Positions 15,103 to 62,226 of a stretch of DNA of 64,000 nucleotides are shown one piece after another. The DNA is from an uncultured bacterium (lineage in GTDB: Bacteria > CSSED10-310 > CAZUFC01). Under the pieces are notes generated by a model. The model had not been told where the DNA came from and did not search any database. It saw only the letters and a program-made list of their open reading frames with translations. Location of the stretch: positions 1-64,000 of the forward strand of contig CAZUFC010000025.1 in the NCBI GenBank assembly GCA_964619725.1, written 5' to 3'. The position numbers and the translations under genes were made by a program. Each line of letters begins with the position of its first letter. The first letter of the stretch is position 1.

Positions 15103-15111
15103 GAGGTTATA

Positions 15112-15537
15112 ATGGACGAAAATTTTGAACCGAAGATAATATATTTCATGTGTTCCTGGTGCGGAACAGGAGGTTGTGAAACGGCTTCCGCTTATCATTA
15201 TTCCTATCCTGAAAACGTATTGCCGTTCAGGTATAACTGTACCGGCTCAATACCGACGGTTCATCTGTTGCGGTCGTTCCTGGAGGGAGCAGACGGCGTC
15301 GTCATCAGCGGATGTCATCCCGGCGACTGCCATTATAACGACGGCAATTTCAGGGCGAGAAGAAAAGTCGCTCTGGTCAAAAATTTAATGAATTCTTTCG
15401 GATTGGAATCGGACAGATTGTGGTTCAGATATGTGGCTCATGGGGAGGCCAGGAGATTCGCGGATACGGCAAACGAATTCGAGAGACATGTAAGAGAAAT
15501 GGGACGCAATCCGCTGAAAGCGAGGAAGGAAACATGA
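15112..15537 (+). CDS. mvhD: MvhD/FlpD [2Fe-2S] subunit (divergent)
   Basis: FEPKII.F.C.WC, CTG, GADGV...GCHPGDCHY. Confidence 0.88.
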   Translation: MDENFEPKIIYFMCSWCGTGGCETASAYHYSYPENVLPFRYNCTGSIPTVHLLRSFLEGADGVVISGCHPGDCHYNDGNFRARRKVALVKNLMNSFGLESDRLWFRYVAHGEARRFADTANEFERHVREMGRNPLKARKET

Positions 15538-16610: not shown

Positions 16611-16611
16611 A

Positions 16612-17709
16612 ATGAAACGCACAGCGAGACTGAATAAAAAAGCGGAAGAGGGTTTGAAATCTCTGCTTGAATTTCTTGTCGAAGAAAAGAGAGTTGATGC
16701 TGTTTTTGCGCCGGCTGCGATAGGAGAGAAGGAAGAATACAATTATTTTCTTATAAAAGACAAGGAATTGATAAAAAACGTCAGTCCTTTTTATCCGTTC
16801 ATGCCGGGTAATGCGGGGAAGATACTGGCTCAACTGGTTTTGAACGATCCATTCGACAAGCCTTGCGCGGTCGTCGCGAAGCCCTGTGAGATTCGTGCTT
16901 TCGTCGAGATCGTCAAGCAGAACCAGGCCAATCCTGAGAACGTATATTTCATAAGCTATACTTGTCCGGGAGTATTTCCTTTGAGAACGTTCACAGAAAG
17001 CGGGGCATCGGAGAAGGTTCAGGATTTCCTGGATAATATCGGCGCAGAAGAAATTTCCGAAGATATACGGGAAACCTGCAAAGCCTGTGAGCATCCTGTG
17101 CCGGTGAATTCAGACATCACTTTCGTCCTTTTCGGCGAAGACGCCCGGAACGAATCGGTATTGATTGCGGAAAATGAGAAGGGGGCCGGATTGCTGGAGG
17201 GTTTCGGCGCAGAGTATATCGAGCGCAAGAAGAATTATGACCCTATATTGAAGAAGAGGAAAGCGGAGAAGGAACGATTAGTGAAAGAATATCAGGAAAA
17301 GTATCAGGGGCTTGAAAATTTGACCGGTCTGTTCGGTCGCTGCATATCCTGTCATGCCTGTAGCAGGGTTTGCCCCATATGTTCCTGCAATCTATGCGAT
17401 TTTGATTCTGCGCTTCATGAATTAAAGCCTGAGAAATACGAAAGTGAGATGGCGAAACGAGGAGGGATCAGGGTACCGACAAATGTATTGCTGTTTCATC
17501 TGGGCCGATTGGTCCATGCAGGCGTTTCCTGTGTGAATTGCGGGATGTGTACCGATGTATGTCCGTCCGATATACCGGTGGCTCAAATTTTTCTGAAAGT
17601 CGGAGGTGCAGTGCAGAAACTGTTTGATTACACGCCGGGCAAAGACTATGAGGAAGAATTGCCCATGAAGAAATATGAGCAGGAAGAATTAGTGGAGTTT
17701 GCTCTTTAG
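16612..17709 (+). CDS. Second FdhB/FrhB-like 4Fe-4S dicluster protein
   Basis: KPCE, CISCHACSRVCPICSC, FHLGR..H....CVNCGMCTDVCP; clear paralog of the upstream gene. Confidence 0.8.
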   Translation: MKRTARLNKKAEEGLKSLLEFLVEEKRVDAVFAPAAIGEKEEYNYFLIKDKELIKNVSPFYPFMPGNAGKILAQLVLNDPFDKPCAVVAKPCEIRAFVEIVKQNQANPENVYFISYTCPGVFPLRTFTESGASEKVQDFLDNIGAEEISEDIRETCKACEHPVPVNSDITFVLFGEDARNESVLIAENEKGAGLLEGFGAEYIERKKNYDPILKKRKAEKERLVKEYQEKYQGLENLTGLFGRCISCHACSRVCPICSCNLCDFDSALHELKPEKYESEMAKRGGIRVPTNVLLFHLGRLVHAGVSCVNCGMCTDVCPSDIPVAQIFLKVGGAVQKLFDYTPGKDYEEELPMKKYEQEELVEFAL

Positions 17710-17723
17710 GAGGTTGAATCAGT

Positions 17724-18152
17724 ATGGACAGGAATAATTTTTCTCCGAGAATAGTCGGATTCTTGTGTAAATGGTGTGCTTACAGCGGCGCTGACCTGGC
17801 CGGCGTAAGCCGTGAAAAATATCCGCCCAATATGTTTCCGATTCGTGTCATGTGTTCAGGAAGAGTCGATCCCCTCTTCCTGGTAAAAGCTCATCTTTAC
17901 GGCGCGGATTCTGTCATGATAGGCGGTTGCCATCCGGGTGATTGTCATTACAATTCAGGTAACCTGATGGCCCGAAGGCGTTTTGCTGTTTTGAAGGAAG
18001 TGCTGGAAAACACGGGGCTTGAAGCAGACAGACTGAAGCTTCATTGGATTGCGGCATCCGAAGGCAGCAAATACGCCAGAACGGTAGAAAAATTGACGGC
18101 GGAGACGAAGAAAAAAGGGCCTAATCCCATAGGAAAGGAAATATTTATTTAG
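17724..18152 (+). CDS. mvhD: MvhD/FlpD [2Fe-2S] subunit
   Basis: FLCKWCAYSGADLAG, RVMCSGRV, GCHPGDCHY. Confidence 0.92.
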   Translation: MDRNNFSPRIVGFLCKWCAYSGADLAGVSREKYPPNMFPIRVMCSGRVDPLFLVKAHLYGADSVMIGGCHPGDCHYNSGNLMARRRFAVLKEVLENTGLEADRLKLHWIAASEGSKYARTVEKLTAETKKKGPNPIGKEIFI

Positions 18153-18271: not shown

Positions 18272-19657
18272 TCATCTGGTTTCCATGAGCGAGGCTACGA
18301 GGTCGGAAAGCTCCTCATTGATTTTCTCGTCGTCTTTCAAGTTGTCTGCAGCAGGAGGTTTCCAATATCCGCCCATTGATTTGAAGATAGAGCGCTTGGG
18401 TTTGAGTTTGACTCTTTTTCTGACTTTAGGAACAGTCATGCAAGCCGACGGCATGAAGAGAATTTTTTCACGGCCTTTTTGAGTCACAGCGGCATCCAAT
18501 GCTTCCTGCAGGGTCCTGAAGGGCTTCATGAATATGGACTTCATCAAACCGGGATCGATATCGGTCACGGCCCAAATTTGAGCCCAACGGGCTATTTCGG
18601 CGATTTTAGCTGCCTTGTGGTAGCCCAGGACGTATTCTTTTTCGATTTTATCGAGAGCGGCCTGGGGGTCTCTGGCGCTGGACAACAGTTTGACGAACGT
18701 ATCATGTCCGACGCCGCTGCGGCATTTTGATACGAGAATTAGGATGCCGTTGGGAGCCAGGGCATGTTTCGCGTTATCAATCGCCTTCTGGGACTGATAG
18801 AGATCAATATCCATGGGATAAGGCGCTACTGCGACGACGATTTCCGCTTTTTCCTTGATGTCGACCGCAAAGACCTGATGGGCCTTCTCTATGGCGGCAT
18901 TAAGCGATTCGCTGATATCGCCTGCAGTGGCGGCATAGATTCTCTCTTCACGATCCAGCACCGTCATAATGGTGAAGATATCTTTATCCTTGATGATTTG
19001 GATAGCGTCCTCCATATCTTCATGAACGGGATTGCCTTTCAACGCCAGCGATTGCGCGCTCATTTTAAGAGCGAGTTTATGATTCTGCTGAATCGTTTTG
19101 TAGGAGGCTATACCGGGAAGGAAAGCTTTTCTGCCGCCGGTGTATCCCGCGAAATAATGCGGTTCGACAGACCCGATGATAACTATTTTCTGTGCTTCTA
19201 CGCCCAGACGGTTCACCCACATTTCCGTCCCGTTTTTTGAGACGCCGATTTTGACCATATCCTCATCTTTTTTGGCATCGTGCACATGAATTCTATCCCT
19301 GTATTCGTCCAGCCGTTTTCCGAAGATGAACTGCAATTCGCCTTCGGTGGGACCTCGATGTACGCCCGTTGCGATGATGAAACGAACTTTTTTATCGGCA
19401 ATTCTGTCATGGATGATGTCGAGGACTTTGGCCGTAGGTGTAGGCCTCGTTCCGTCGTTGACGATAAAGAGTATATCGTCGGCATCATCAAGGAAATCAT
19501 CGAAGGATTTTGATGCGACAGGATTATTCAAAGCCTTGAATAAAGTTTCCTTTTCATCGGACCTGGGTACGGCGTTAGGATAGACGTAACCGCCGAAATT
19601 TTCGTCGTTGATAAAAGCTTCAACGATTTCACGGCCGTAAGGAATTTCAACTCTCAT
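18272..19657 (-). CDS. larA: LarA-family nickel-pincer 2-hydroxyacid racemase/epimerase
   Basis: ND.TRPTP, ATGVHR, PHYFAGYTGGRK..LPG, D..LYQ..K motifs; substrate not determinable. Confidence 0.88.
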   Translation of the reverse strand: MRVEIPYGREIVEAFINDENFGGYVYPNAVPRSDEKETLFKALNNPVASKSFDDFLDDADDILFIVNDGTRPTPTAKVLDIIHDRIADKKVRFIIATGVHRGPTEGELQFIFGKRLDEYRDRIHVHDAKKDEDMVKIGVSKNGTEMWVNRLGVEAQKIVIIGSVEPHYFAGYTGGRKAFLPGIASYKTIQQNHKLALKMSAQSLALKGNPVHEDMEDAIQIIKDKDIFTIMTVLDREERIYAATAGDISESLNAAIEKAHQVFAVDIKEKAEIVVAVAPYPMDIDLYQSQKAIDNAKHALAPNGILILVSKCRSGVGHDTFVKLLSSARDPQAALDKIEKEYVLGYHKAAKIAEIARWAQIWAVTDIDPGLMKSIFMKPFRTLQEALDAAVTQKGREKILFMPSACMTVPKVRKRVKLKPKRSIFKSMGGYWKPPAADNLKDDEKINEELSDLVASLMETR

Positions 19658-19690
19658 CAGCTAATCTGACCTTCTTTCTTTTTAATTTTC

Positions 19691-20626
19691 TCAGACAAGG
19701 GCCATTTCTTCCAGTTTTTCAATAACCTGTTTGACGCCGTAGGCAGAGTTGTTCAACGCTTCCTGCTCATCGTCATTAAGCGTCAGTTCAATGATTTTTT
19801 CAACGCCGCCTTTGCCGAGAATGATCGGAACGCCCACAAACAGCCCTTCAATGCTGTATTCGCCTCTCAGGTAGGCTGAACAGGGAAGAATTCTCTTTTT
19901 ATCCCTGATGATGCATTCGACCATTTCAGCGGCCGAAGCGGCGGGCGCCCAGAATGCGCTGCCGGTTTTAAGGTATGAAACGATTTCCGCTCCGCCTTTC
20001 CTGGTGCGTTCGACCAGTTTTTCAATTTTATCTTTTGTCATAATTTCCGGTAAAGGAATACCGCAAACGGTCGTGTAACGGGGCAGAGGCACCATGGCAT
20101 CTCCGTGACCGCCTAGGACCAGCGCGGTAGTATCTTTAACGCTGACGCCGAGTTCAGAAGCGATGAAGTATCTGAAGCGGGTCGAATCCAGTATTCCGGC
20201 CATTCCGACGACCCGTTTCAATGCGAAACCGGTGGTTTTAAGAGCCATGTAACTCATCACGTCCAAAGGATTCGCCACCATAACTATCGTGGAATCAGGC
20301 GCGTATCTCGCTATCTCCTGAGAAACGCTTTTATTGATTTTAGCGTTCACCTGGAGAAGATCGTCGCGTGACATGCCCGGCTTCCTGGCTACTCCAGCCG
20401 TCACAACCACCACGTCCGAATCTTTCATGGCCGAAAAATCTTCGGTTCCATAGATATCGGTGTCATATTTACGAATAGGGGCCGCCTGAATAGCGTCCAT
20501 CCCTCTTCCGCGGGCGAGCCCTTTAATGACGTCGATAAGAACTACGTCAGCAATTCTCTTTTCTGCAATATACAAAGCCGCTGTGGCGCCGACATTTCCG
20601 CTGCCGATTATAGACACTTTTGCCAT
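19691..20626 (-). CDS. mdh: LDH-like malate dehydrogenase (canonical)
   Basis: GSGNVG, TAGVARKPGMSRDDL, ANPLD, LDSTR, GGHGD. Confidence 0.93.
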   Translation of the reverse strand: MAKVSIIGSGNVGATAALYIAEKRIADVVLIDVIKGLARGRGMDAIQAAPIRKYDTDIYGTEDFSAMKDSDVVVVTAGVARKPGMSRDDLLQVNAKINKSVSQEIARYAPDSTIVMVANPLDVMSYMALKTTGFALKRVVGMAGILDSTRFRYFIASELGVSVKDTTALVLGGHGDAMVPLPRYTTVCGIPLPEIMTKDKIEKLVERTRKGGAEIVSYLKTGSAFWAPAASAAEMVECIIRDKKRILPCSAYLRGEYSIEGLFVGVPIILGKGGVEKIIELTLNDDEQEALNNSAYGVKQVIEKLEEMALV

Positions 20627-20628
20627 TT

Positions 20629-21576
20629 TTATTCCTCCTTCTCGTCGCTTTCAAGGTCCAAGGCTTTAATAGCATTCCTTACTACGGTAGCCGATTTGTC
20701 GAACGCTTCTTTTTCCTCCAGAGTCAAATCCAGTTCGATTATTCTTTCAATGCCTTTTTGACTTAGTTGAACGGGAACGCCCAGGCATATATCCTTGTGA
20801 CCATACTCGCCGTCAAGATAAACAGGAGCGCAAAGAATCCGCTTGGTATTTCGTATTATCGCTTCAACGGTGTCGGCTACTGCAGCGCCCGGCGCATAAG
20901 AAGCGCTTCCAGTCTGCAGATTTTTGACTATATCGTTTCCAGCTTTCCTGGTCATTCCAACGATCGTTTCGATTTTTTCAGGCGATAATATTTCCCCTAT
21001 GGGTATTCCTTCAACTCGGCAATACCGGGGAAGAATGACCATGTAATCATGATGTCCGCCCAGGATCAGGGCCGTCATATTAACGCTGGACAAATTCAAT
21101 TCGCGGGCGACGAATTCGCGCAACCGGGTCGAGTCCAGGTCTCCTGATACCCCCATAACCTTTTTGGAACTGAAACCGCCCTTTTTCACGAGATAGTATG
21201 AAGTGGTATCCACAGGTTCCGTCAGATTGATGATGACGGCTTCAGGCGCGTGTCTTTTGATCTCCTGAGTAATTTGATCGACAACGGGAATATTATGCTC
21301 CAGAAGGTCCAGACGCATCATTTCCGGTTTTCGCACTTTTCCTGCCGCAATCACGACGACTTTTGAACCGGCCATATCGCTGAAATTGTCAGAACCGTCG
21401 ACCATTACGTCGTATCCCCTTATCGGAGCCGCCTCCATTAGGTCGAGAGCTTTCCCCCTTGCGCGTCCTTGCTCGACATCAATCAGCAGGATGTCGGCGA
21501 TGTTTTTTTCCGCAAGGTAAAATGCGGCGGCCGTTCCAACATTACCGGCTCCCAGAATGGTAACTTTTTCCACCAT
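20629..21576 (-). CDS. mdh: LDH-like malate dehydrogenase paralog (divergent)
   Basis: GAGNVG, RKPEMMR, LDSTR, GGH retained; NP changed to EP and GGHGD to GGHHD. Confidence 0.8.
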   Translation of the reverse strand: MVEKVTILGAGNVGTAAAFYLAEKNIADILLIDVEQGRARGKALDLMEAAPIRGYDVMVDGSDNFSDMAGSKVVVIAAGKVRKPEMMRLDLLEHNIPVVDQITQEIKRHAPEAVIINLTEPVDTTSYYLVKKGGFSSKKVMGVSGDLDSTRLREFVARELNLSSVNMTALILGGHHDYMVILPRYCRVEGIPIGEILSPEKIETIVGMTRKAGNDIVKNLQTGSASYAPGAAVADTVEAIIRNTKRILCAPVYLDGEYGHKDICLGVPVQLSQKGIERIIELDLTLEEKEAFDKSATVVRNAIKALDLESDEKEE

Positions 21577-21804: not shown

Positions 21805-21905
21805 GTTAATTACATTGATGATTATAAAGCAAAAAGATGAGAAGGCGACTTCAGCCCTCCCAGAGAAACCGAAAGGGTAAGCGCTTGAGAATCACGTCCG
21901 TCGCA

Positions 21906-23567
21906 TCAAGAGATGTCGATCATGCGCGACAGGGCGGCTTTCCCTCGATATTCGGGCAGAAGTATGGGGGCTTTTCGTTTCGTTTCGATTCCCGCATCTC
22001 TCAGCATGCTGACGTATTTAGAAACGTGTTTGAGAGTCAATTGACCGTTTTTAAGTCCATCTTTGACCATTTTAGCAGCGCTGATGCCAGACCTTCTTCC
22101 GAAGACCATGGTATCGAGAGTGGAGTTGCCCATAAGTCTGTTTTTGCCGTGGACGCCGCCGGAAACTTCGCCGGCGACCCAAAGTCCTTCGAGACTCGTT
22201 TTACCCCAGGGATCGGTTTCCACGCCGCCGTTCTGGTAATGGAGGGTGGGGAAGACCAGGACGGGGTTTTTACTGATGTCGATGTCATGCCTGGCGAACA
22301 TTCTTTTCATGCCGGGAAAAGCTTTTTCGATATAGCCTTCGCCGTTTTTCAATTCAATGAGAGGGGTATCGAGCCAAACGCCGCGAAGACCCGTAGGCGT
22401 AGTGATGCCTTTATCATTGCCGTAGCATTCCCTGATGATGGCCGCGGCTTCGACGTCTCTGGGTTCCATGGGGAAGACGAAAGCTTCTCCGTCCCTGTTG
22501 ATGGGTTGAGCTCCGGAAGTTCTGAGTTTTTCAGTAAGGAGATAACCGATGATTTGCAAAGGATAGGCAGCCCCGGTAGGATGGTATTGAACAGTATCGA
22601 GGTCTTTGAGATTTGCGCCGGCTCTATAGGAGATGACCACTCCGTCGCAAGTGGCGCCGTAATGGTTCGTAGTGGGGAAACCCCTGATATGAAGCCTGCC
22701 GAAACCTCCCGTGGCTATAATGACGGCTTTGGCCCTGGCGACTTTGTATTCACTGGTCTCAATATTATAAAGCAAGGCGCCGCTGACTTTTCCGTCATAA
22801 TCCGTAAAAAGTTCGATAGCCGGGAAATGTTCGATGCATCCGATGCCGCGGCTTCTGAACTCATCCCTGATGACTCGGAATTCTTCAAGTCCCGTAAAAT
22901 CGCGGCAGGAATGCATACGTCTTATCGAAGTTCCTCCGCCGTATTTTTCGACGAAATCGCCGTTTTCTTCCCGGTCTATAAGTGCGCCGAGTTCCAGCAG
23001 CCAATGGATGATATAAGGAGCGTCTTCAACGAGGGCTCTTACGACGTCCGGTTTGTTGGCGTAGTGTCCTCCGCCGATAGTGTCGATGAAATGTCTGGTG
23101 ACGGAATCGACATCGCGGTCTGCAGCCTGAGTGCCTCCCTCGGCCATAATGGAATTGGCATCGCCGTGTCTGAGTTTATTGACCAGGAGAATCCGGTCAG
23201 CGGGTACGCCTTCCGTATTGGCCCAAATGGCTGCGCTCGTACCGGCCAGACCGCCTCCTATTATCATTACGTCAACATCATAATCTATTTTGCTTGCATC
23301 GATTTCCTCTTCTTCGACAAGAGGGTAAGCTTCCAGGAGGTCCGCTACCGGTTCAGGGGCCATGTCGCCCTTGTTGGGACCTATTTTTATTTCACGCTTG
23401 CCGCCGGTCACATAATCTGGATGAAACTGCGACAGCACTTCATTCTGCTGTTCCGGCGTCATTGCCGGGGGCGTGTAATGCAAACGCTCTTTTCTGGTCT
23501 TGTGGACCACCTGCATTAATTCATAAATATCCTGCGGATAACCTTCCATATATTTTGCTTCAGCCAT
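21906..23567 (-). CDS. Soluble fumarate reductase-type flavoprotein (TfrA/FrdA-like), lacking the covalent-FAD His
   Basis: GGGLAG, NSIMAEGG, QYHPT, TEKLR, PRDV, HYQNGG, HGKNRLMGNS. Confidence 0.85.
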   Translation of the reverse strand: MAEAKYMEGYPQDIYELMQVVHKTRKERLHYTPPAMTPEQQNEVLSQFHPDYVTGGKREIKIGPNKGDMAPEPVADLLEAYPLVEEEEIDASKIDYDVDVMIIGGGLAGTSAAIWANTEGVPADRILLVNKLRHGDANSIMAEGGTQAADRDVDSVTRHFIDTIGGGHYANKPDVVRALVEDAPYIIHWLLELGALIDREENGDFVEKYGGGTSIRRMHSCRDFTGLEEFRVIRDEFRSRGIGCIEHFPAIELFTDYDGKVSGALLYNIETSEYKVARAKAVIIATGGFGRLHIRGFPTTNHYGATCDGVVISYRAGANLKDLDTVQYHPTGAAYPLQIIGYLLTEKLRTSGAQPINRDGEAFVFPMEPRDVEAAAIIRECYGNDKGITTPTGLRGVWLDTPLIELKNGEGYIEKAFPGMKRMFARHDIDISKNPVLVFPTLHYQNGGVETDPWGKTSLEGLWVAGEVSGGVHGKNRLMGNSTLDTMVFGRRSGISAAKMVKDGLKNGQLTLKHVSKYVSMLRDAGIETKRKAPILLPEYRGKAALSRMIDIS

Positions 23568-23659
23568 TTATCATTTCCTCCGAAAAACCGAGACCGAATT
23601 TAATGAATAATTCCGGCGGAATATAGTCTTAATTCCACCCTTAAAAAATCTGAACTGCT

Positions 23660-24424
23660 TTATTCGGCTTCCGATTCGCGTTCACGCGATTCATAAAGTC
23701 TGGTCAATTCCTCTTTATCCAAAGCAGTGAGTTTTTCCATCTCTTCATCGAATTTACCCTGAGCCAATTCCTCCAATCTTCTCTTCAGGTGTTCCGGTTC
23801 AGGACAGCCGTATCTGCCGTACATCCTCCGGCCCAACTGCGCCACGTGATAATGAACGATTTCAGCAGGACACCTGATGGCGCATAAACCGCACTGAATG
23901 CAATCGAACGATATCTCCGCCACTTCCTCAAAATCTCCCCTCAATGCCGCCTGAATATAATCCATAACCTCCAGGTCCTGGGGACAGGCTTTTGTACAAG
24001 TATTACACGAAACGCAGCGGGCTATTTCGGGAAAATACTTCAGGAAAACGTTCGGATGATACTCCTCTTTCGAAATATCATAAGCGGGTTTTACTGCAGG
24101 AGAGAAAGGAATCTGAACCAGGTGCATCCCGTCTTCCACTCTTGTCTGGCAGGCCAGGTCCGTTTCGAGTTTATATTCACCCTGTCTCCGATAAACGGTG
24201 GAACAGGCTCCGCAGAAGCCCTGACGGCAGCCTACGGCCCTGACGAGTTTATAGCCGGCGTATTCCATAGCGTTAAGAATGGTCAAATCGGCGGGAACCT
24301 TATATCCTTTTCCCATGATGTAGATGGTGGCCCATTCTTTGATGTCCTTGTCATCAATCCCGGTAGTCACCGACGATGTGGCGTCGGCTATTTTTTGCAT
24401 AATGTCTATCTTTTCTTCAGCCAT
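23660..24424 (-). CDS. Fumarate reductase-type iron-sulfur subunit ([2Fe-2S] + 2x[4Fe-4S])
   Basis: GCRQGFCGAC...LAC; CVSCNTCTKACP; CIQCGLCAIRCP. Confidence 0.85.
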   Translation of the reverse strand: MAEEKIDIMQKIADATSSVTTGIDDKDIKEWATIYIMGKGYKVPADLTILNAMEYAGYKLVRAVGCRQGFCGACSTVYRRQGEYKLETDLACQTRVEDGMHLVQIPFSPAVKPAYDISKEEYHPNVFLKYFPEIARCVSCNTCTKACPQDLEVMDYIQAALRGDFEEVAEISFDCIQCGLCAIRCPAEIVHYHVAQLGRRMYGRYGCPEPEHLKRRLEELAQGKFDEEMEKLTALDKEELTRLYESRERESEAE

Positions 24425-24439
24425 TTTGTCGCTCTTCCT

Positions 24440-25333
24440 TCAGAGAATATTTTTTTGCTTTAACAAAGGCAGCGGATTGACGCGATTTAATTCGAATCCG
24501 CAAACATTTTCATTCAAGCCGAAAGCGCAAGCCATGAGTTGCGTGAAATACAAAACAGGCATTTGCTCGAAATCGGCATATTTTTCCGTTACTTCCTTCT
24601 GCCGGTCGTCAAGATTGAACATACACAGAGGACAGCTCGTAATCATAGCTTCGGCGCCGGCATCGCGGGCGTGAGAAATGATGTCGTAGGTCAGATCGAC
24701 AACCATTTCTTTGTTCGATACGGTCTGGTAGTTGCCGCAACATACGCTCCTGTAAGGATTCTCCACGACTTCAGCTCCCAGAGCTTCGAGCAGCATGTTG
24801 TAGATGAGAGGATTTTCAGGGTCGTCGATTCCACTTTCTTTGGGTCGCATCAGCATACAATCGTAATAAGGCGCGACTTTCAGCCCCTCAAGAGGTTTTA
24901 CCGTTTTTTCCTTCACTTTGTCGAAGCCTATTTCCTTTAATAATTCCAAGAAGTGAACGACCTCGACATTCCCCTCATAGTCCTGTTCAAGATAAGCCAG
25001 ACTATTGATTTTTTCCAAATCCTCCGCGTTTTCTTTCAGTCTTATGTTGGTCCTTTTCAACGTGTTGAAACACATGGAGCATAAAGTCACCAAGCGTCTT
25101 TCATTGTCTACGAGACCGTTTTGATTCATTTCCTGAACGCGAATGAATACGCGTGCCGGCGCTATATGATGCATCAGGTCGTCGGCCGCCAGAGAATATA
25201 CGGTCCCGCAACAATTCCAGCGGGGAAGTTCCACTAATTCCAAGCCCAGTACTTCAGCAGACGCCAGGGCTGAGCTTTCAAAACCCTTGGCGCTGGTTTT
25301 TAGAGAGCATCCTGGATAATACGGCAGTTTCAT
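24440..25333 (-). CDS. hdrB: Heterodisulfide reductase subunit B (two CCG domains)
   Basis: YYPGC, WNCCG, CSMC, YYDC, CCG, CPLC.FNLD. Confidence 0.93.
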   Translation of the reverse strand: MKLPYYPGCSLKTSAKGFESSALASAEVLGLELVELPRWNCCGTVYSLAADDLMHHIAPARVFIRVQEMNQNGLVDNERRLVTLCSMCFNTLKRTNIRLKENAEDLEKINSLAYLEQDYEGNVEVVHFLELLKEIGFDKVKEKTVKPLEGLKVAPYYDCMLMRPKESGIDDPENPLIYNMLLEALGAEVVENPYRSVCCGNYQTVSNKEMVVDLTYDIISHARDAGAEAMITSCPLCMFNLDDRQKEVTEKYADFEQMPVLYFTQLMACAFGLNENVCGFELNRVNPLPLLKQKNIL

Positions 25334-25348
25334 TTTGTTCCCACTTTT

Positions 25349-25753
25349 CTATCCTGTCATTTTACGGAAGCTGCTGACCAGTGCGATTTGCGGCAGCCTC
25401 TTGATCTCATCCTCAGGTATACATCTGATTTCGATATGATCCTTGGCTTTCCTCAGCGAAATTTGACGTAATGCCTCTGCAACTTTCGAAGGATCAAGGC
25501 CGCGAGGGCATCTGACGGTGCAGGTAAAACAAGAAGCGCAAATCCACATGGCTTTTGATTCGCAGACATCCTCCTGACCCAGTTGAACTTTACGCATCAT
25601 CTGGGATGGAGTGATATCCATTTCCGATACCATAGGGCAACTTCCCGAACAGGTCCCGCACTGTTCGCACAGCGTCACGACCTCGCCCGACAAAGTTTCC
25701 ACTTTTTCCACGAATTTCGTGTTTTTATCAGTCAATATTACTTTTTTAACCAT
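25349..25753 (-). CDS. hdrC: Heterodisulfide reductase subunit C
   Basis: CEQCGTCSGSCP, WICASCFTCTVRCP. Confidence 0.92.
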   Translation of the reverse strand: MVKKVILTDKNTKFVEKVETLSGEVVTLCEQCGTCSGSCPMVSEMDITPSQMMRKVQLGQEDVCESKAMWICASCFTCTVRCPRGLDPSKVAEALRQISLRKAKDHIEIRCIPEDEIKRLPQIALVSSFRKMTG

Positions 25754-25824
25754 AAGTTACTCCCAGCAAATACAAATTTGAAGAGCCAGTCGAAGAACCG
25801 GTCCCTTAAGGAATATCCTGAAAG

Positions 25825-26250
25825 TTAAGTTTTTTCTTTAACTTTCAGATTCAGGGGACCGAGTTTTTTAATATCTTCCGTGAATTCTTTAACGACTCGA
25901 CCGAATTTGACGCCCTCGGAGGCGGAAACCCAGTCAAGTCGAAGTCTTTCTGAATCAATGCCCAACTGTTCCAGCGTTTTTTTGAGCAGGATGGCCCTTC
26001 GTAGAGTTTTGTAATTGCCGTTGACATAATGGCAGTCGCCGAGGTGGCAACCGGCGATAAGGACTCCATCGGCGCCTTCATTAAAGGCGTTAAGGATATG
26101 AGAAGGTTCGACCCTGCTGGAACACATGACTCTGATAGGGATCATGTTGACGGGGTATTGAACTCTGGAGGTGCCTGCCAGATCGGCGCCGAGGTAAGAA
26201 CACCAGTTGCACAGAAAACCGATAATTTTAGGTTTAAATTCTTCTCCCAT
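25825..26250 (-). CDS. mvhD: MvhD/FlpD [2Fe-2S] subunit
   Basis: FLCNWCSYLGADLAG, RVMCSSRV, GCHLGDCHY. Confidence 0.93.
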   Translation of the reverse strand: MGEEFKPKIIGFLCNWCSYLGADLAGTSRVQYPVNMIPIRVMCSSRVEPSHILNAFNEGADGVLIAGCHLGDCHYVNGNYKTLRRAILLKKTLEQLGIDSERLRLDWVSASEGVKFGRVVKEFTEDIKKLGPLNLKVKEKT

Positions 26251-26256
26251 TTGAAT

Positions 26257-28197
26257 TTACTCCAATGCTTTTTCAACCATCGCTAAAATCTGGTTAGAAG
26301 TGAATCCTCTTTGTTCCATGGCCCCTGAGGGGCAAGTAGCCGCGCAATTTCCGCAGCATTTGCATAAAACGGTATTGACGTTCGAAATTCTTTTACCGTT
26401 TTTAACTTCGAGTGAAATAGCCGAGTAAGGACAGACTGCAACGCAAGCGCCGCATCCTGAACAAACATCCTCATCGACCAGTGATGTGTAGGGGTCCGCA
26501 ATGAATTTTCCCGGATTCATCAGAGTTATCGCTCTGGCAGCGGCGGCGCTGCCCTGTGCGACGCTGTCTGGAATGTCCTTGGGACCCTGGACGGTTCCCG
26601 CGACGAAGACGCCTTCGGATAGAGTATCGACCGGTCTGAATTTGGGATGCGCTTCTTTCAGAAAACCGTCATCCCCCTTGGCCAGCCTCAGAAGCTCCGC
26701 AACGATGCCGGTTCCCTCATGGGGTATCATGCCGACGGAAAGAATGACTGAATCGAATTCCGATTCGATAATATCTCTGGAGAGCGTATCTTCTGCTTTA
26801 AGAAGAATTCTTCCGTTATGCATGTTTTCCTGTAATTGAGCGACGCGTCCCCTGATAAATTTCACCCCTTCTCTCTGCGCTCTTTTATAGTATTCCTCGA
26901 ATCCTTTTCCGTAGGCTCTGAGGTCCGTATAGAAAATATAGACGTCTTTGGATTTGTCGGTTCTTTTCAGCAACTGGGCCAATTTGCTTGCGTACATGCA
27001 GCAGATTCTGGAGCAGTATTCGTTTCCGCACTGTTCGTCTCTGGAGCCGACGCATTGAATAAAGGCGATTCTTTTACCGAGGTCGGTGATGGGTTCGCCT
27101 TCGGTAGCGTGTGCAATAATTCTTTCCAGTTCCAAGGAAGTATAGACGTTATCGAATTTGCCGAAGCCGTAGACGGCCTTTTGCGTGGCGTCGAAAACCT
27201 GATAACCTGTTGAGACAATGATCGTATCGACGGTGAAAGTTAATTCCTGTGGTTTATCGTCGTAATTGATGGCGTTGGGTTCGCAAACTTCTGAGCATTT
27301 AGTGCAAGCCAGGGGGAAAAGGCCCAGGCATGATTCGGAGTCAAGGATGTAGGTGTGAGGAACAGCGATGGAGTTGGGCAGGTAGATGGCTCTTCGGGAG
27401 GTCAGTCCTTCGTCTTGTTCGTTGGGGACGACGACGGGGCAGACATCTTCGCATTTTTCACAGCAGGTGCAGAGCGACGGATCGACGAAGGTGGGTTTCT
27501 TTCTGACCGTAACCTGATAGTTACCCAGAAAACCGTCCACACTCAGCAATTCCGTGCTGGTCATCAGTTCGATGTTGGGATTTGCGGGAACGTCGGCCAT
27601 TTTGGGCGAAAGAATACAGGCGGCGCAGTCTTCCGTGGGGAAGGTCCTGGAGAGTTTAACCATGTGACCGCCTATGGATGGTTCTTTCTCAACAAGATAA
27701 ACCTTGAAGCCTGCATTGCCGAGGTCAAGAGCGGCCTGGATGCCGGCAATACCGCCGCCGACGACCAGGACTCTTTTGCCGACAGGCATTGACAATTTTT
27801 CCAGAGGTTCATCCAATCTTGCTTTTGTAATGGCCATATTGGTGAGCGATTTCGCTTTTTCGGTCGCTTCCTCTTTAAAGCTGAAGTGGGGCCAGGAGCA
27901 TTGTTCGCGAATATTGGCCATTTCAAAGACATAAGGGTTCAATCCAGCTTTTTCCACTGTGGTCATGAACGTCGCACCCTGGAACTGGGGTGAGCATGCC
28001 GCTATGACTACGCGATCCAGTTTGTGTTCCTTGATGTCATCAATGACCAATCTTTGACCGACCTCAGAACACATATGAGTGTGATCCTTAACCATAACGA
28101 CGTCACCCTGTTGTTCCGCAAATCGCACTACTTGATCAATATCAACGACTTCAGCGATGTTGCTTCCACAGTGACAAACATATACACCGATTCTCAT
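26257..28197 (-). CDS. hdrA: Heterodisulfide reductase subunit A (canonical, 646 aa)
   Basis: GVYVCHCG.NI, AACSP, NIREQCSW, GGGIAG, TFPTEDCAAC, QCVGSR..YCSRICC, R.YGK..EE, GPKDIP, C-terminal ferredoxin. Confidence 0.95.
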   Translation of the reverse strand: MRIGVYVCHCGSNIAEVVDIDQVVRFAEQQGDVVMVKDHTHMCSEVGQRLVIDDIKEHKLDRVVIAACSPQFQGATFMTTVEKAGLNPYVFEMANIREQCSWPHFSFKEEATEKAKSLTNMAITKARLDEPLEKLSMPVGKRVLVVGGGIAGIQAALDLGNAGFKVYLVEKEPSIGGHMVKLSRTFPTEDCAACILSPKMADVPANPNIELMTSTELLSVDGFLGNYQVTVRKKPTFVDPSLCTCCEKCEDVCPVVVPNEQDEGLTSRRAIYLPNSIAVPHTYILDSESCLGLFPLACTKCSEVCEPNAINYDDKPQELTFTVDTIIVSTGYQVFDATQKAVYGFGKFDNVYTSLELERIIAHATEGEPITDLGKRIAFIQCVGSRDEQCGNEYCSRICCMYASKLAQLLKRTDKSKDVYIFYTDLRAYGKGFEEYYKRAQREGVKFIRGRVAQLQENMHNGRILLKAEDTLSRDIIESEFDSVILSVGMIPHEGTGIVAELLRLAKGDDGFLKEAHPKFRPVDTLSEGVFVAGTVQGPKDIPDSVAQGSAAAARAITLMNPGKFIADPYTSLVDEDVCSGCGACVAVCPYSAISLEVKNGKRISNVNTVLCKCCGNCAATCPSGAMEQRGFTSNQILAMVEKALE

Positions 28198-28367: not shown

Positions 28368-29237
28368 TTATGGGATTAAAGAAGCCAGAGTTTTTCCGAT
28401 GTCAGCGGGACTTCCGGCCACGGCAGCTCCGGCCTTTTTCAGCGCCTCTATTTTCTCAGGCGCGGTTCCTTTGCCGCCAGAGATAATGGCGCCGGCATGC
28501 CCCATACGTTTTCCCGGAGGCGCTGTTCTGCCTGCGATAAACGCTGCCACAGGTTTTTTGACTTCCCCCTTGATGAATTCCGCCGCTTCCTCTTCCGCTG
28601 TTCCTCCTATTTCCCCGATAAGGACAATGGCGTCGGTATCCGGGTCTTCATTGAACAGTTTAAGGTAATCGATGAAATTCATTCCAAGTATGGGATCGCC
28701 GCCCATGCCGATGCATGTCGATTGTCCTATGTCCCTTTCAGAGAGCTGGTGTATGGCTTCGTAAGTGAGGGTTCCGCTGCGCGATATGACGCCGACGGCG
28801 CCGGGCTTATGAATATATCCCGGCATAATTCCTATTTTGCACTTTCCGGGAGAAATGACGCCCGGGCAGTTCGGCCCTATCAGTCGAACGTCCGTGTTCT
28901 CAATGATTCTTTTTACTTTCACCATATCCAGTACGGGAATGCCTTCGGTTATGCATACGATCAGTTTAATTCCAGCGTCGGCCGCTTCCAGTATCGCATC
29001 TGCGGCGAATGCCGGAGGTACGAAAATCATGGTCGCGTCAGCGCCGGTGGTTTCCCTGGCTTCCGATACGGTATCAAAGACTGGAATTCCTTCCACTTCC
29101 TCGCCGCCTTTTCCCGGCGTAACTCCGCCGACTACTTTCGTGCCGTATTCAAGACAACGGAGAGTATGGAAGGCGCCGGCCTTTCCGGTAATACCCTGAC
29201 AAATCATTTTGGTTTTTTCATCTGCTAGAATCGACAT
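28368..29237 (-). CDS. sucD: Succinyl-CoA synthetase alpha subunit
   Basis: [27 protein letters not shown]. Confidence 0.96.
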
Positions 29238-29252: not shown

Positions 29253-30416
29253 TCAATTTTTGATATTGGAAATTGCTTTTACCGCCGCGTCGTTAAAGTC
29301 TGAGGCTGTAATGATTTTAATATTCGATCTTTCCAGGATCGCCTTTCCTTCCTTCATGTTTGTTCCTTCAAGTCTGACGATGAGAGGAACTTTCAGGTCG
29401 ACTTCCTTGAGAGCCGTCAGAATACCTTCGGCGATGACGTCGCATTTCATGATTCCGCCGAAAATATTGACCAGGACCGCTTTCACGTTAGGGTCCTGAG
29501 TAAGAATTTTAAAGGCTTCCGTAACTTGATCGGTACTTGCGCTCCCTCCTACGTCCAGGAAATTCGCCGGTTCCGCGCCGTGCAGTTTAATGATGTCCAT
29601 GGTAGCCATCGCCAGCCCCGCTCCATTGACCAGGCAGCCGATATTACCGTCAAGAGAAATATAACTCAGTCCGTTTTCCCTGGCAACTACCTCCTTCGGG
29701 TTCTCTTCGGTAACGTCTCTCAATTCAACGATATCAGCATGTCTGAACAATGAATTGTCGTCGAAATTCAGCTTGGCATCCAGCGCTAGCATATCGCCCT
29801 GTTTCGTGACGACCAGCGGGTTGATTTCCGCCAGCGAGCAATCATTGGCCAGGAATGCCCGGTAAAGGTTTGTGATCATCTTAAGGGCCGATTTGAATGT
29901 CTTTTTTTCTCGCAGGCCGAGTTTAAAAGCCATTCGTCTCGCCTGGTAGGACATCAATCCCACGGCCGGATCAACGAATTCCTTGTATATTTTTTCCGGG
30001 GTCTCAGCAGCGACCTTCTCTATTTCCATACCGCCTTCCGAGCTGCCCATTACGGCGACGCGATTAGTGCTTCTGTCGATGACCATTCCCAGATATAGTT
30101 CCCGGTCAATATCACAGGCTTGTTCTATTAAGACTTTGCGAACTTCTTTGCCCTCGGGGGCCTGATGCGTCTTAAGAAGCATTCCCAGAATGTTTCCGGC
30201 ATGAGAACGAACCTCCTGCTCCGATGAAGCCAGTTTGATGCCGCCCGCCTTTCCACGGCCCCCGGCATGCACCTGCGCTTTAACTACCCATTTGTCGCCT
30301 CCGATGCGGGAGGCCGCTTCCGCCGCTTCCTCGACTGAAGCCGCTACCGCTCCGGCAGGAACAGGAACATTGAATTTCCTCAGTATATCTTTTGCTTGAT
30401 ATTCGTGTACTTTCAT
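29253..30416 (-). CDS. sucC: Succinyl-CoA synthetase beta subunit
   Basis: [33 protein letters not shown]. Confidence 0.96.
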
Positions 30417-30427
30417 CCTATTTCTCG

Positions 30428-31012
30428 CTAGTATTTAATTTCAAGGATTCTTCCTGCCGCTTCAGAAGATTCTTGCTCCACCTTCCGATGCAAACTTTGC
30501 CCATACGAATCCATGGTTACGACTACGGGAAATCTTTCCACTTCCAGCACCCACAATGCTTCAGGAGTGCCGAATTCTTCCAGTTTAAAGACTTTTTTAA
30601 CTTTTTTTATGGATTCCGCCAGAACAACAGCCAGTCCGCCTATCGCATGGAAATATACCGCTCCGTATTCGCTGCACGCTTCCAGCGTCCGGTCTCCCAT
30701 GCCTCCTTTGCCTATGATCCCGACTACTCCATATTCCTTTATCACGTCCGCTTCATACGGTTCTTCGCGAATGCTGGTCGTCGGACCGGCTGCAACGACT
30801 TTCCAACCCTCGTCTGTCTTCTTCATTATAGGGCCGCAATGATAAATAACCGAACCCCGCAGGAAGTCTCTCAGTTCTTCCGGCTTTTCCTCCACCATGT
30901 ATTTATGAGCGGCGTCGCGGGCGGTAACGATCTGTCCGGTCAGCGCCGCTTCATCGCCTACTTTGAGTTCTCTGATTCTTTTTTCCGTGGTCGGTAATTC
31001 AATTTCAATCAT
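30428..31012 (-). CDS. Class I Fe-S fumarate hydratase beta subunit (FumA C-terminal / TtdB family)
   Basis: TARDAAH, YHCGP, GPTTS.R, IGKGG. Confidence 0.92.
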
Positions 31013-31868
31013 ACGTCACGCCACCTCCCGAATCGATAATCATTGTGCGGCGCCGGCAAGCCCAGCACATATAGGAAACGGATACGAAAAAACAGGCCGG
31101 GTGACGCACCATGGCGCCCAGTTTGACGCCGAGAACGGTGGTTTTTCCGCCGAAACCCATGGGGCCTATGCCCAGCGAATTCAATTCATCCGTCAATTTG
31201 GATTCCATTTTCGCCAGGGCCGCATTCTCGTTTTCATCGTCAAGCAATCTGAAAAACTGCTCCTTCGACAACCGATAAGAGGTCATCCTGTCGCCGCCTA
31301 TGCCTGCTCCTACCGTGCCCGGCGCGCATCCTTTGCCCTGAGCGGACACGATTGCATCGATAATGCATTTTCTGACTCCCTCAAGGTCCCGGCCGGCATT
31401 CAGCCTGCTGTCCGGCAATTTGTATTGAACGCCTACATTCTCGCTTCCCCCGCCTTTCAACATAAGACGGATTCGCAAGTCCTCCCTCTCCCACTGCTTG
31501 AAAGATATGTAAGGCGCTCCGGTTCCTGTGCCGTCGCCCACATTCTTCCCGCTTATCACGTCCACCGTGTTCGGCCTTAAATAACACTTCGCCGTTGCCT
31601 CCCTGACGGCTTCCGTGATCAGCTCTTTCAATCCATTCTGCTTTCGCGATACGGGATGATCAACATAAAATAACGTAGTCCCCGTATCCTGGCACATCGG
31701 GACGGATTGTTCTCGAGCAAGCTCTATATTTTCCAGTATCCTGTTTAGCGTACTGCGAGCCAGACTCCCTTCCTGCTCCTCCGATGCCGCCGTCCTTATC
31801 CGATTCTCAACATCAACGGGCAAATCCGTCGATGTCCTCCTGATTAGTTCGACAATTTCTTCCTTCAT
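31005..31868 (-). CDS. Class I Fe-S fumarate hydratase alpha subunit (FumA N-terminal / TtdA family)
   Basis: PMCQDTG, KGGGSEN, GIGPMGFGG, HPA, CWA.R. Confidence 0.92.
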   Translation of the reverse strand: MKEEIVELIRRTSTDLPVDVENRIRTAASEEQEGSLARSTLNRILENIELAREQSVPMCQDTGTTLFYVDHPVSRKQNGLKELITEAVREATAKCYLRPNTVDVISGKNVGDGTGTGAPYISFKQWEREDLRIRLMLKGGGSENVGVQYKLPDSRLNAGRDLEGVRKCIIDAIVSAQGKGCAPGTVGAGIGGDRMTSYRLSKEQFFRLLDDENENAALAKMESKLTDELNSLGIGPMGFGGKTTVLGVKLGAMVRHPACFFVSVSYMCWACRRRTMIIDSGGGVTYD

Positions 31869-32564: not shown

Positions 32565-32772
32565 GCGTATGGTCCCGATTTCCGAAGAGGGACTGCCGGT
32601 TAAGAAATTTTGGCGCAAATCCGTTTTCTGTCTGGTGCGTTATTTAGGATTTAAGGAGGAATGAGAGACAAGGCGAAAGGTAGGAATAGAAGAGTGAAGG
32701 GAAAGTTTACGCCAAATTTTCATAAAATTTTTTATTTTTTTCAGGAGAAGAACTAATTAAAGGAGGTTGCGC

Positions 32773-33765
32773 ATGGCGAAACCAAAGGTAGGCTTTTACT
32801 GGTGCGCATCGTGCGGAGGGTGTGAGGAAGCGGTAGTAGACCTGGCGGAGGACATCCTGACGGTCGTGGATGCGGTAGACATAGTCTTTTGGCCTGTGGC
32901 GATGGATTTCAAGAAGAAGGACGTGGAGGCGATGGCCGACGGCGAGCTGGCAGTAAGTTTCATCAATGGAGGAGTTCGGAACGACGAGCACGAGGAGATG
33001 GTTAAGTTACTGAGGCGGAAGAGCGGATTAGTGGTAGCATTCGGGGCCTGTGCGCATTTAGGAGGCATTCCGGGGTTAGCCAATTTTTCGAATCGCGAGC
33101 TGGTGTTTGAGCGAGCGTATAAGAAGACGGCATCGACGCATAATCCGGATTACGTAACGCCACAGACGAAGAGCAGCGTGAACGGCAAGGAGTTGGAGCT
33201 TCCATTGTTTTGGGACACGTTGCATCCCTTGGATCATATAATCGATGTAGATTACTATTTGCCGGGATGTGCGCCGCCGCCGGATTTAATAATGGATGCA
33301 GTGACGGCCATATTAAAGGGAGAGCTTCCGGAGAAGGGAGCGGTATTGTCGCCGAACAAGTCTTTATGCGATACGTGTCCGCGTTCGGAGAGCAAGCCTG
33401 ATAAGCTGATGATGAAGGACATCAAGCGTCCTTATGAGGTCATTTTAGACCCAGAGAAATGTTTTCTTGAGCAAGGTGTGATATGTTTAGGAATATCGAC
33501 GAGGACGGGATGCGGGGAGCGCTGCATCAACGCGAACATGCCGTGTCGAGGATGTTTCGGGCCGTTGGACGGAATCCAGGACCATGGGGCCAAGACATTG
33601 TCGGCCATAGCGTCTTTAGTGGGTATAGAAGGTGAGGAGAGCATGAGCGAGGAAGAGGTGCAGACGCAGATAGAAAAGATCAAGGACCCTGCAGGACTGT
33701 TCTATATGTATGGGTTGGCATCTTCTTTACTCGGAAGGAAACGCATTAAAGGAGGAAAAGCATAA
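32773..33765 (+). CDS. mvhG: Group 3c [NiFe]-hydrogenase small subunit
   Basis: WCASCGGCE, GACAHLGGIPGL, PGCAP, CFLEQG..CLG..TR.GC...C.....PCRGC. Confidence 0.92.
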   Translation: MAKPKVGFYWCASCGGCEEAVVDLAEDILTVVDAVDIVFWPVAMDFKKKDVEAMADGELAVSFINGGVRNDEHEEMVKLLRRKSGLVVAFGACAHLGGIPGLANFSNRELVFERAYKKTASTHNPDYVTPQTKSSVNGKELELPLFWDTLHPLDHIIDVDYYLPGCAPPPDLIMDAVTAILKGELPEKGAVLSPNKSLCDTCPRSESKPDKLMMKDIKRPYEVILDPEKCFLEQGVICLGISTRTGCGERCINANMPCRGCFGPLDGIQDHGAKTLSAIASLVGIEGEESMSEEEVQTQIEKIKDPAGLFYMYGLASSLLGRKRIKGGKA

Positions 33766-35222: not shown

Positions 35223-35256
35223 CATTTCCGAAAGGGGAAATTATCATCTCGATATT

Positions 35257-37157: not shown

Positions 37158-37181
37158 GGGATTGAGGATAGAGGAGGAACA

Positions 37182-41285: not shown

Positions 41286-41295
41286 GGAGCTATTA

Positions 41296-58177: not shown

Positions 58178-58262
58178 AAAATTCCTCCTCATAAGCGTCG
58201 CGCCGGATGACACGTTTTTTTCTGAATCATGATCGTCATCAAGCTTTCGATATTATGTAAAC

Positions 58263-62225: not shown

Positions 62226-62226
62226 A

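Follow-up and report, generated by a model that had tools for sequence, protein, structure and literature searches.

What do heterodisulfide reductase (Hdr)-type complexes reduce in organisms that do not make methane? This old open question is raised again by a gene cluster in the 64,000-nucleotide stretch of DNA that we analyzed (hereafter the window; positions 1 to 64,000 of contig CAZUFC010000025.1, assembly GCA_964619725.1, from an uncultured bacterium of the phylum CSSED10-310). Within the window, genes for HdrA, MvhD, HdrC and HdrB run directly into genes for an FrdB-like iron-sulfur protein and an FrdA-like flavoprotein. A first-pass annotation, made from the sequence alone, had proposed that H2-derived electrons are split here between fumarate and ferredoxin, either directly or through an unknown bacterial thiol/disulfide carrier. 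The split itself has become our best-supported reading and fits published hypotheses: on balance, the six proteins probably form, with an Mvh-type hydrogenase, one soluble bifurcating H2:fumarate/ferredoxin complex. Gene order, domains, conserved ligands and catalytic residues, and recurrence of the linkage in other genomes are observed directly, and complex modeling supports an interface between FrdB and HdrB-HdrC; from these we infer fumarate as the substrate, the electron path, bifurcation and the donor.

The cluster reads fumA-fumB-sucC-sucD-hdrA-mvhD-hdrC-hdrB-frdB-frdA, head-to-tail on the minus strand from position 31868 to 21906, and the gene names are supported by the expected Pfam and NCBIfam families. 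Its members are:

31005 to 31868, minus strand: fumA, class I Fe-S fumarate hydratase alpha subunit (Pfam Fumerase, 259 bits)
30428 to 31012, minus strand: fumB, fumarate hydratase beta subunit (Pfam Fumerase_C, 173.8 bits)
29253 to 30416, minus strand: sucC, succinyl-CoA synthetase beta subunit (NCBIfam NF001913, 569.8 bits; cut-off 370)
28368 to 29237, minus strand: sucD, succinyl-CoA synthetase alpha subunit (NCBIfam TIGR01019, 468.4 bits; cut-off 353)
26257 to 28197, minus strand: hdrA, 646 residues with 30 Cys, a full-length flavoprotein as in solved methanogen Hdr complexes (matches 5odc_A)
25825 to 26250, minus strand: mvhD, hydrogenase-HdrA iron-sulfur adaptor (Pfam FlpD, 180.9 bits; HdrA2 model positions 646-774)
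25349 to 25753, minus strand: hdrC-like, 134 residues with two [4Fe-4S] motifs (TIGR03290, 72.6 bits)
24440 to 25333, minus strand: hdrB-like, with two complete CCG motifs (matches 9sfi_C, 145.5 bits)
23660 to 24424, minus strand: frdB-like iron-sulfur subunit, 254 residues (Pfam Fer2 and 4Fe-4S dicluster families)
21906 to 23567, minus strand: frdA-like flavoprotein (Pfam FAD_binding_2, 203.6 bits, residues 99-482)

The fumA and fumB genes overlap by 8 nucleotides (nt), sucD and hdrA are separated by 170 nt, and the gaps from hdrA to frdA are, in order, 6, 71, 15, 15 and 92 nt. No hydrophobic segment was found in the 13 cluster proteins from fumA through a LarA-like gene downstream (19-residue Kyte-Doolittle mean, threshold 1.6), so no membrane anchor is predicted. 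Open reading frame (ORF) coordinates, families and hydrophobicity scan thus agree with the first-pass description of six consecutive, anchor-less hdr and frd genes after fumarase and sucCD.

In the proposed mechanism, the six subunits and the hydrogenase would use flavin-based electron bifurcation, centered on the HdrA flavin, to drive 2 H2 + fumarate + oxidized ferredoxin -> succinate + reduced ferredoxin. High-potential electrons would pass from HdrA through the HdrC clusters, the HdrB CCG clusters and the FrdB clusters to a non-covalent flavin adenine dinucleotide (FAD) in FrdA, which would pass them to fumarate; no free thiol/disulfide carrier would take part. Low-potential electrons would go to ferredoxin for the 2-oxoacid:ferredoxin oxidoreductases encoded 12 kb away. 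Together with malate dehydrogenase, fumarase, succinyl-CoA synthetase and an ATP-citrate-lyase-like enzyme, the complex would serve an H2-driven reductive citric-acid branch or cycle.

Is the flavoprotein a plausible fumarate reductase? The dicarboxylate-site motifs reported in the first-pass annotation are all present in the translation (QYHPT at residues 327-331, TE at 345-346, PRD at 369-371, HY at 443-444 and NRL at 476-478), as is the replacement of SHxxxAQGG by NSIMAEGG (138-145). We aligned seven sequences: the FrdA-like protein, two of its orthologues, E. coli FrdA, SdhA and NadB, and a canonical SdhA encoded elsewhere in the window. H329, T331, E346, R349, R370, H443 and R477 are invariant across all seven. 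In this alignment Asn138 occupies the position at which E. coli FrdA and SdhA have the His of their 'RSHT' motif – a His that we take to be the covalent-FAD residue, His44 in E. coli FrdA. Loss of the covalent FAD link lowers the flavin potential and abolishes succinate oxidation while fumarate reduction is kept. The AlphaFold2 model of the protein, built from a 36-row alignment, is confident (predicted local distance difference test score (pLDDT) 92.5, predicted template modeling score 0.91), and its top Foldseek match is E. coli FrdA (1kf6_A, E 6e-35, template modeling (TM) score 0.69). The confident part includes a 95-residue N-terminal extension that is conserved even in a Bathyarchaeia orthologue. 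At the other end, ~45 residues follow the FAD domain, and the protein thus lacks the C-terminal helical domain present in FrdA, SdhA and NadB.

To place the protein among its relatives, we ran a full-library HMMER search, which returned 15603 representatives at E <= 0.001. The tree, a quick IQ-TREE run under LG+G4 with Shimodaira-Hasegawa approximate likelihood ratio test (SH-aLRT) support only and no bootstrap values, holds 103 rows, of which 92 are representatives; the others are the query with four of its locus orthologues, E. coli FrdA, SdhA and NadB as references, and three paralogues encoded by the host genome. The representatives are those 395-700 residues long among 150 listed, with 58 fragments and long fusions left out. 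In this effectively unrooted tree, the FrdA-like family is an 8-row clade (support 99), and the branch between it and a larger, 71-row clade has support 100. One part of the larger clade is a Frd/Sdh group (35 rows; support 99) that includes both E. coli FrdA and SdhA and the paralogues from contigs C25 and C29 of the same genome; another is a NadB group of 35 rows (SH-aLRT 100), with E. coli NadB and the paralogue from contig C173. The grouping with NadB against which the first-pass annotation had cautioned is therefore absent, the NadB clade excluding the FrdA-like family. Thiol:fumarate reductase is represented in the tree not by an authentic TfrA but by representatives with TfrA as their best NCBIfam model: this holds for 4 of 5 rows sampled from a 24-row Frd/Sdh subclade (458-625 bits, all below the cut-off of 718), which places TfrA-like proteins within Frd/Sdh and apart from the FrdA-like family. 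The comparison with TfrA that the first-pass annotation had suggested thus does not support TfrA membership either.

The FrdA-like protein reaches no curated NCBIfam cut-off, its top model being TfrA (NF004900, 292.6 bits against 718). A TfrA-type identity was rejected on this score; the TfrA model gives a better one, 494.9 bits, to a canonical SdhA paralogue. NadB identity is ruled out by the tree, and the NadB model TIGR00551 gives 252 bits against a cut-off of 453. Identity as canonical complex II was likewise rejected; a separate canonical sdhAB is encoded in the window. By sequence, then, the FrdA-like protein belongs to a separate, widespread lineage of ~552-residue proteins outside NadB and outside the clade of canonical Frd/Sdh and TfrA-like proteins.

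Such a deep lineage, with no characterized member and no curated cut-off passed, could act on something other than fumarate, for example another 2-enoate dicarboxylate or aspartate. A stretch 'LLTE.LR..GA' and a small insertion are common to the FrdA-like protein and NadB, and the missing C-terminal domain and novel N-terminal extension also fit a changed substrate. We nonetheless regard this as very unlikely. The FrdA-like protein keeps each of the seven residues shared without exception by E. coli FrdA, SdhA and NadB in the alignment, and it has a Tyr where the NadB sequences compared have a Glu, presumably the NadB-typical Glu121. It also has an iron-sulfur partner and lies between the fumarase/succinyl-CoA synthetase genes and malate dehydrogenase genes. 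A comparable 'succinate operon' is reported from the cultured succinate producer Pseudoclostridium thermosuccinogenes, likened here by description only (PMC7282089).

The iron-sulfur partner carries a plant-type [2Fe-2S] motif (C66, C71, C74, C92) and two four-Cys [4Fe-4S] motifs (C137/140/143/147 and C175/178/181/185), and all 12 of these Cys are invariant in 13 orthologues. Its scores fall short of every SdhB/FrdB model (28.3 bits with TIGR00384, where 88 is required; 32.4 with TfrB), and the 60 PDB sequence matches listed, out of 80, include neither SdhB nor FrdB. The FrdB-like protein has no CCG domain; the CCG domains sit in the separate HdrB. The latter matches the solved methanogen HdrB 9sfi_C over its full length (residues 1-293), scores 168 bits with NCBIfam, below the cut-off of 345, and has C9/41/42/85/88 and C159/198/199/234/237 invariant in 9 orthologues. 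HdrC is also below its cut-off (160 for TIGR03290), its residues 27-104 matching model positions 2-80 of 144; C29/32/35/39 and C72/75/78/82 are invariant in 8 orthologues, and the last 30 residues fall outside the model. HdrA aligns with solved HdrA 5odc_A at 723 bits (residues 2-642 on 5-647) and scores 831 bits with NCBIfam HdrA2, under the equivalog cut-off of 1100. Pieces of the methanogen TfrB model are matched by three proteins, FrdB at model positions 19-82, HdrC at 127-222 and HdrB at 346-478: TfrB is one fused protein, and its parts are separate proteins in the window.

How might electrons reach the flavoprotein? We modeled a three-chain complex of HdrB, HdrC and FrdB, with FrdB as the partner. 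The model scores 0.77 by interaction prediction score from aligned errors (ipSAE; median of 3 runs), and the best control scores 0.00; the runs share at least 95% of contacts, and partner pLDDT is at least 76. Among 80 solved complexes, 58 attain this ipSAE mark, as do 2 among 110 mismatched pairs; these counts are only roughly valid for the present model. In the modeled interface, FrdB residues 135-145 (C137, C140, C143) face HdrB residues 9 and 38-41 (C9, C41), and the HdrC tail (109-134), which is unmatched by canonical HdrC models, contacts FrdB. This predicted docking of FrdB on HdrB and the HdrC tail favors direct wiring over a thiol shuttle.

A thiol shuttle would follow the methanogen pattern: ferredoxin and an unknown bacterial disulfide would both be reduced by Mvh-HdrABC, and FrdAB with a CCG module would re-oxidize the resulting thiols with fumarate. 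Such a scheme was drawn for Cloacimonadota by Williams et al. 2021 (PMC8542988), and HdrB keeps both complete CCG motifs, TfrA is the top NCBIfam model for FrdA and the TfrB model is matched by FrdB, HdrC and HdrB. We nevertheless find it quite unlikely here. A shuttle needs two CCG proteins, one for disulfide reduction and one for thiol oxidation, and the cluster has one. The genome search turned up a single further HdrB-like gene, 31% identical and in a different cluster on contig C5 (C5:32732-38477). Neither DsrC nor the ComA family was found in the genome, which is 90.9% complete; the control search recovers ComA in Methanocaldococcus jannaschii, and coenzyme B (CoB) genes were not searched. 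FrdA is far under the TfrA cut-off and branches outside the clade with TfrA-like sequences, and the complex model puts FrdB directly on HdrB. Of the two electron routes in the first-pass annotation, the direct one has thus gained support and the thiol route none: the complex model and the gene inventory together favor one complex with direct electron transfer. As a separate observation, the HdrB-like gene on contig C5 lies next to an HdrA-like open frame of 1503 residues, in which four stretches match HdrA separately.

A broader version of the direct-transfer reading goes further. The HdrB CCG clusters would have lost disulfide cleavage and become a relay to docked FrdB, fumarate would be the high-potential acceptor of many bacterial and archaeal 'heterodisulfide reductases', and here one H2-fed complex would pay for the ferredoxin of 2-oxoglutarate synthase through fumarate reduction. 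We hold this version tentatively, at slightly less than an even chance.

Candidates for the electron donor and for the user of reduced ferredoxin lie on the other side of the cluster:

32767 to 35712, plus strand: Mvh/Vhu-type [NiFe] hydrogenase small subunit, large subunit and maturation protease (VhuG, VhuA, Pfam, HycI)
40098 to 44693, plus strand: 2-oxoacid:ferredoxin oxidoreductase, two alpha/beta pairs and a gamma subunit (NF006412, Pfam POR_N, TPP_enzyme_C, POR)

The hydrogenase subunits score 212.7 bits with VhuG and 418.6 bits with VhuA, each under the cut-off, and match Pfam Oxidored_q6 and NiFeSe_Hases; the protease matches HycI. These genes are divergent from fumA and come without an mvhD of their own, the closest mvhD being the one that adjoins hdrA. 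The 2-oxoacid:ferredoxin oxidoreductases, with NF006412 scores of 473 and 508 bits (cut-off 411), are the likely user of reduced ferredoxin. Genes for ATP-citrate-lyase-like beta and alpha subunits are on contig C133.

Canonical sdhA (TIGR01812, 754 bits, over the cut-off, with the covalent-FAD His) and sdhB occupy 59945-63930 on the minus strand. They directly adjoin Rieske and cytochrome b genes, and no sdhC or sdhD was seen within the window. The Hdr-linked enzyme would thus be a second, distinct fumarate/succinate enzyme.

Does the arrangement recur? The FrdA-like family has many members: each of the 7999 candidates scored was significant, and among the matches listed, the 119 other than the query are 69-77% identical and 539-567 residues long, from sources that range from Aminicenantes, Fermentibacteria, WOR-3, Phycisphaerae and 'Deltaproteobacteria' through Thermoplasmatota. 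We surveyed synteny at 25 loci in species-representative genomes from many phyla by tblastn with the window's proteins. The frdB gene lies directly upstream of frdA in 21/21 loci with upstream DNA (the remaining 4 start inside frdA), and hdr genes are in cis at 11 of the 16 loci having at least 1 kb upstream of frdB. The survey that the first-pass annotation had suggested thus bears out the linkage. At least three gene orders occur: hdrA-(mvhD)-hdrC-hdrB-frdB-frdA, hdrC-hdrB...hdrA-frdB-frdA and, in a Bathyarchaeia archaeon, hdrC-hdrB-frdB-frdA-hdrA. Matches to hdrA were found in 10 of the 11 loci with hdr genes in cis. Where hdr is absent in cis (5 loci), we searched the whole genome for HdrB, and 3 of the genomes proved to encode one elsewhere, at 53% identity. 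At one of these 5, L018 (Stahlbacteria; HdrB not found with this query), frdBA comes after hydrogenase maturation genes. A further observation is that FrhB-like matches lie between hdrA-mvhD and frdBA in loci L012 and L015-L017.

The host metagenome-assembled genome (MAG; 9.17 Mb, 90.9% complete, 6.5% contamination) was compared with nearest genomes of the same phylum only, and the FrdA-like gene was found in 0/13 of those searched (E <= 1e-100). The FrdA of Cloacimonadota MAG locus L006 is 76% identical to that of the window. Absence from the 13 same-phylum genomes, together with 69-77% identity across phyla, suggests from sequence comparison that the gene has spread laterally; mis-binning of contig C25 may be the alternative.

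Several points weigh against the proposed complex. The complex score is the model's own confidence, obtained with 8-13-row alignments and for three chains, unlike the calibration set. HdrB retains all ten Cys of the disulfide-reducing site, as would equally be expected of an enzyme that still used thiols. The hydrogenase lies outside the hdr-frd operon, its genes being transcribed divergently, and another Hdr-type cluster in the window, at 12178-18152 and described below, may be the donor instead, as a Flx-like electron-input module. HdrB was not found with this HdrB query in 2 of the 5 genomes without hdr in cis. No hdrA match was found by tblastn with the window's proteins in the WOR-3 MAG locus L008 (1-6018), which holds mvhA, a maturation protease, a 244-residue ORF with no Pfam match and hdrC-hdrB-frdB-frdA, with sucCD downstream; bifurcation may therefore not be universal in the family, and L008 may encode a non-bifurcating hydrogen:fumarate variant. 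Energetics count both for and against the complex. The potentials of H2 and ferredoxin are -414 mV and about -500 mV, respectively. With these values and a cited fumarate/succinate potential of +33 mV (PMC5861303), we estimate about -70 kJ/mol for the bifurcating reaction, which makes it favorable – yet so strongly exergonic that coupling to ferredoxin is not thermodynamically required.

The last two points fit a soluble hydrogen- or NAD(P)H-dependent fumarate reductase in which Hdr serves as an electron wire and no ferredoxin is reduced, and a soluble five-subunit NADH fumarate reductase is described from Hydrogenobacter thermophilus (PMC13147460). For the window we consider a non-bifurcating enzyme of this kind unlikely: HdrA is full length and very close to the HdrA of a solved Hdr complex, hdrA is in cis at 10/11 loci with hdr genes, and genes for ferredoxin-using 2-oxoacid:ferredoxin oxidoreductase lie in the same neighborhood. 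Running the bifurcating complex in reverse (confurcation), so that succinate oxidation driven by reduced ferredoxin yields hydrogen and aids syntrophic propionate or succinate oxidation, is highly improbable. By our estimate it would be feasible only below about 0.1 Pa H2. The FrdA-like protein also lacks the covalent-FAD His, a loss that disfavors succinate oxidation, and canonical SdhAB with that His is encoded in the same window. What speaks for the reverse direction is that the difficult step in the methylmalonyl-CoA pathway is succinate oxidation (PMC10579422) and that Cloacimonadota, in which the module occurs (L006), are discussed as possible propionate oxidizers (PMC12590816). Bifurcating fumarate reduction remains the best available interpretation, unproven and already published for other organisms.

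The idea is not new; it was proposed between 2019 and 2024 for tubeworm symbionts, for P. thermosuccinogenes and, in hydrogenase-linked form, for Cloacimonadota. Rubin-Blum et al. 2019 described tfrAB and korABCD interleaved with flxABCD-hdrABC in tubeworm symbionts and proposed direct electron transfer to both enzymes (PMC6315080). Mitchell et al. 2024 found that gene cluster co-expressed except for tfrAB and restated the model, including a DsrC-like alternative (PMC11636981); the same arrangement is described from Thioflavicoccus mobilis as well as the tubeworm symbionts (PMC6315080, PMC11636981). Koendjbiharie et al. 2020 described the P. thermosuccinogenes operon (PMC7282089), and Williams et al. 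2021 a 'Ca. Celaenobacter' (Cloacimonadota) cluster of thiol:fumarate reductase (TFR), 2-oxoglutarate:ferredoxin oxidoreductase (OGOR), fumarase, succinyl-CoA synthetase, Mvh and Hdr (PMC8542988). In a 2026 survey, Hdr-linked fumarate reduction is still a suggestion (PMC13147460), and we found no report of a purified Hdr-linked fumarate reductase in the literature searched, which left subscription journals mostly outside its scope.

The window shares with these proposed systems an anchor-less frdBA beside hdrABC and mvhD, the clustering of fumarase, succinyl-CoA synthetase and 2-oxoacid:ferredoxin oxidoreductase genes, and the proposed mechanism; its donor would differ, being a divergent Mvh rather than Flx. 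With Ca. Celaenobacter it also shares the Mvh-type hydrogenase, in an essentially identical arrangement. The Endoriftia, T. mobilis and P. thermosuccinogenes systems are likened by their published descriptions, and all remain hypotheses. No GltD-like gene was seen in the window's operon with Pfam or NCBIfam.

Among better-characterized systems, the MvhAGD-HdrABC complex of methanogens (PDB 5odc) has the same full-length HdrA, two-CCG HdrB, two-[4Fe-4S] HdrC, MvhD and adjacent hydrogenase. The window differs in that ComA was not found, HdrC is shorter with another C-terminal tail, FrdBA is attached and the proposed acceptor is fumarate rather than CoM-S-S-CoB, the heterodisulfide of coenzyme M (CoM) and CoB. 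TfrAB of Methanothermobacter is likewise soluble and combines an FrdA-like flavoprotein, an FrdB-like iron-sulfur part and CCG domains; unlike it, the window's FrdA fails the TfrA model and branches outside the TfrA-like clade. Fold (TM 0.69 to 1kf6_A) and catalytic residues are shared with E. coli FrdABCD (complex II), whereas the window's enzyme lacks the membrane anchor, the covalent-FAD His and the C-terminal helical domain, has a 95-residue extension on FrdA, and has an FrdB with two four-Cys motifs that passes no SdhB model. The H. thermophilus enzyme FrdABCDE, compared by description only, is also soluble, serves the reductive citric-acid cycle and has extra subunits in place of an anchor (PMC13147460). 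Two of the extra subunits resemble Hdr subunits, but the enzyme uses NADH and is not reported to bifurcate.

Other features flank the cluster:

21838 to 21862, minus strand: terminator-like hairpin (9-pair stem) followed by a T run, 44 nt past the frdA stop (consensus scan)
20629 to 21576 and 19691 to 20626, minus strand: two tandem malate dehydrogenase genes (NF004863, 365.6 and 442.8 bits; cut-off 283)

The hairpin is weak by itself, the region holding 13 such sites against 17.7 expected from shuffles, and a promoter scan of the region was uninformative (11 sites against 16.5 expected). The gap between frdA and the malate dehydrogenase genes is 329 nt. After the tandem mdh genes comes the LarA-like gene (the trio spans 18272-21576, minus strand), whose best model is a nickel-dependent malate racemase at 390 bits, below the cut-off of 500. 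The same mdh-mdh-larA trio lies downstream of frdA in L006 (19191-21652).

The other Hdr-type cluster, at 12178-18152 on the plus strand, encodes an HdrA-like protein, MvhD, two FrhB/FdhB-like iron-sulfur proteins with no NCBIfam match and a second MvhD. Its HdrA-like protein has 974 residues, with extra N-terminal 4Fe-4S and pyridine-nucleotide-disulfide-oxidoreductase parts. After the hydrogenase protease, two genes at 35712-37730 on the plus strand may specify a 2-hydroxyacid dehydrogenase sharing the hydrogenase operon: one product is a FAD-linked oxidase resembling GlcD, although its 370 bits fall short of the GlcD cut-off, and the other has 182 residues and two 4Fe-4S dicluster domains. 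A 3438-residue open reading frame lies at 47897-58213 on the minus strand.

What is new here is the placement of the FrdA-like protein outside NadB and outside the Frd/Sdh and TfrA-like clade, the modeled interface of FrdB with HdrB and HdrC, a gene inventory that disfavors a CoM- or DsrC-type carrier, and the 0/13 occurrence within the phylum. The locus does not settle what Hdr-type complexes reduce outside methanogens; it adds a hydrogenase-linked example and a specific candidate interface, between FrdB 135-145 and the first HdrB CCG motif and HdrC tail. If the proposal is true, a fumarate-reducing, ferredoxin-generating Hdr complex would answer that question for a large group of uncultured anaerobes, and would represent a new class of flavin-based electron bifurcation that lowers the energy cost of the reductive citric-acid cycle. 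If the HdrB clusters do act as a relay, two steps of that cycle would be coupled to one another.

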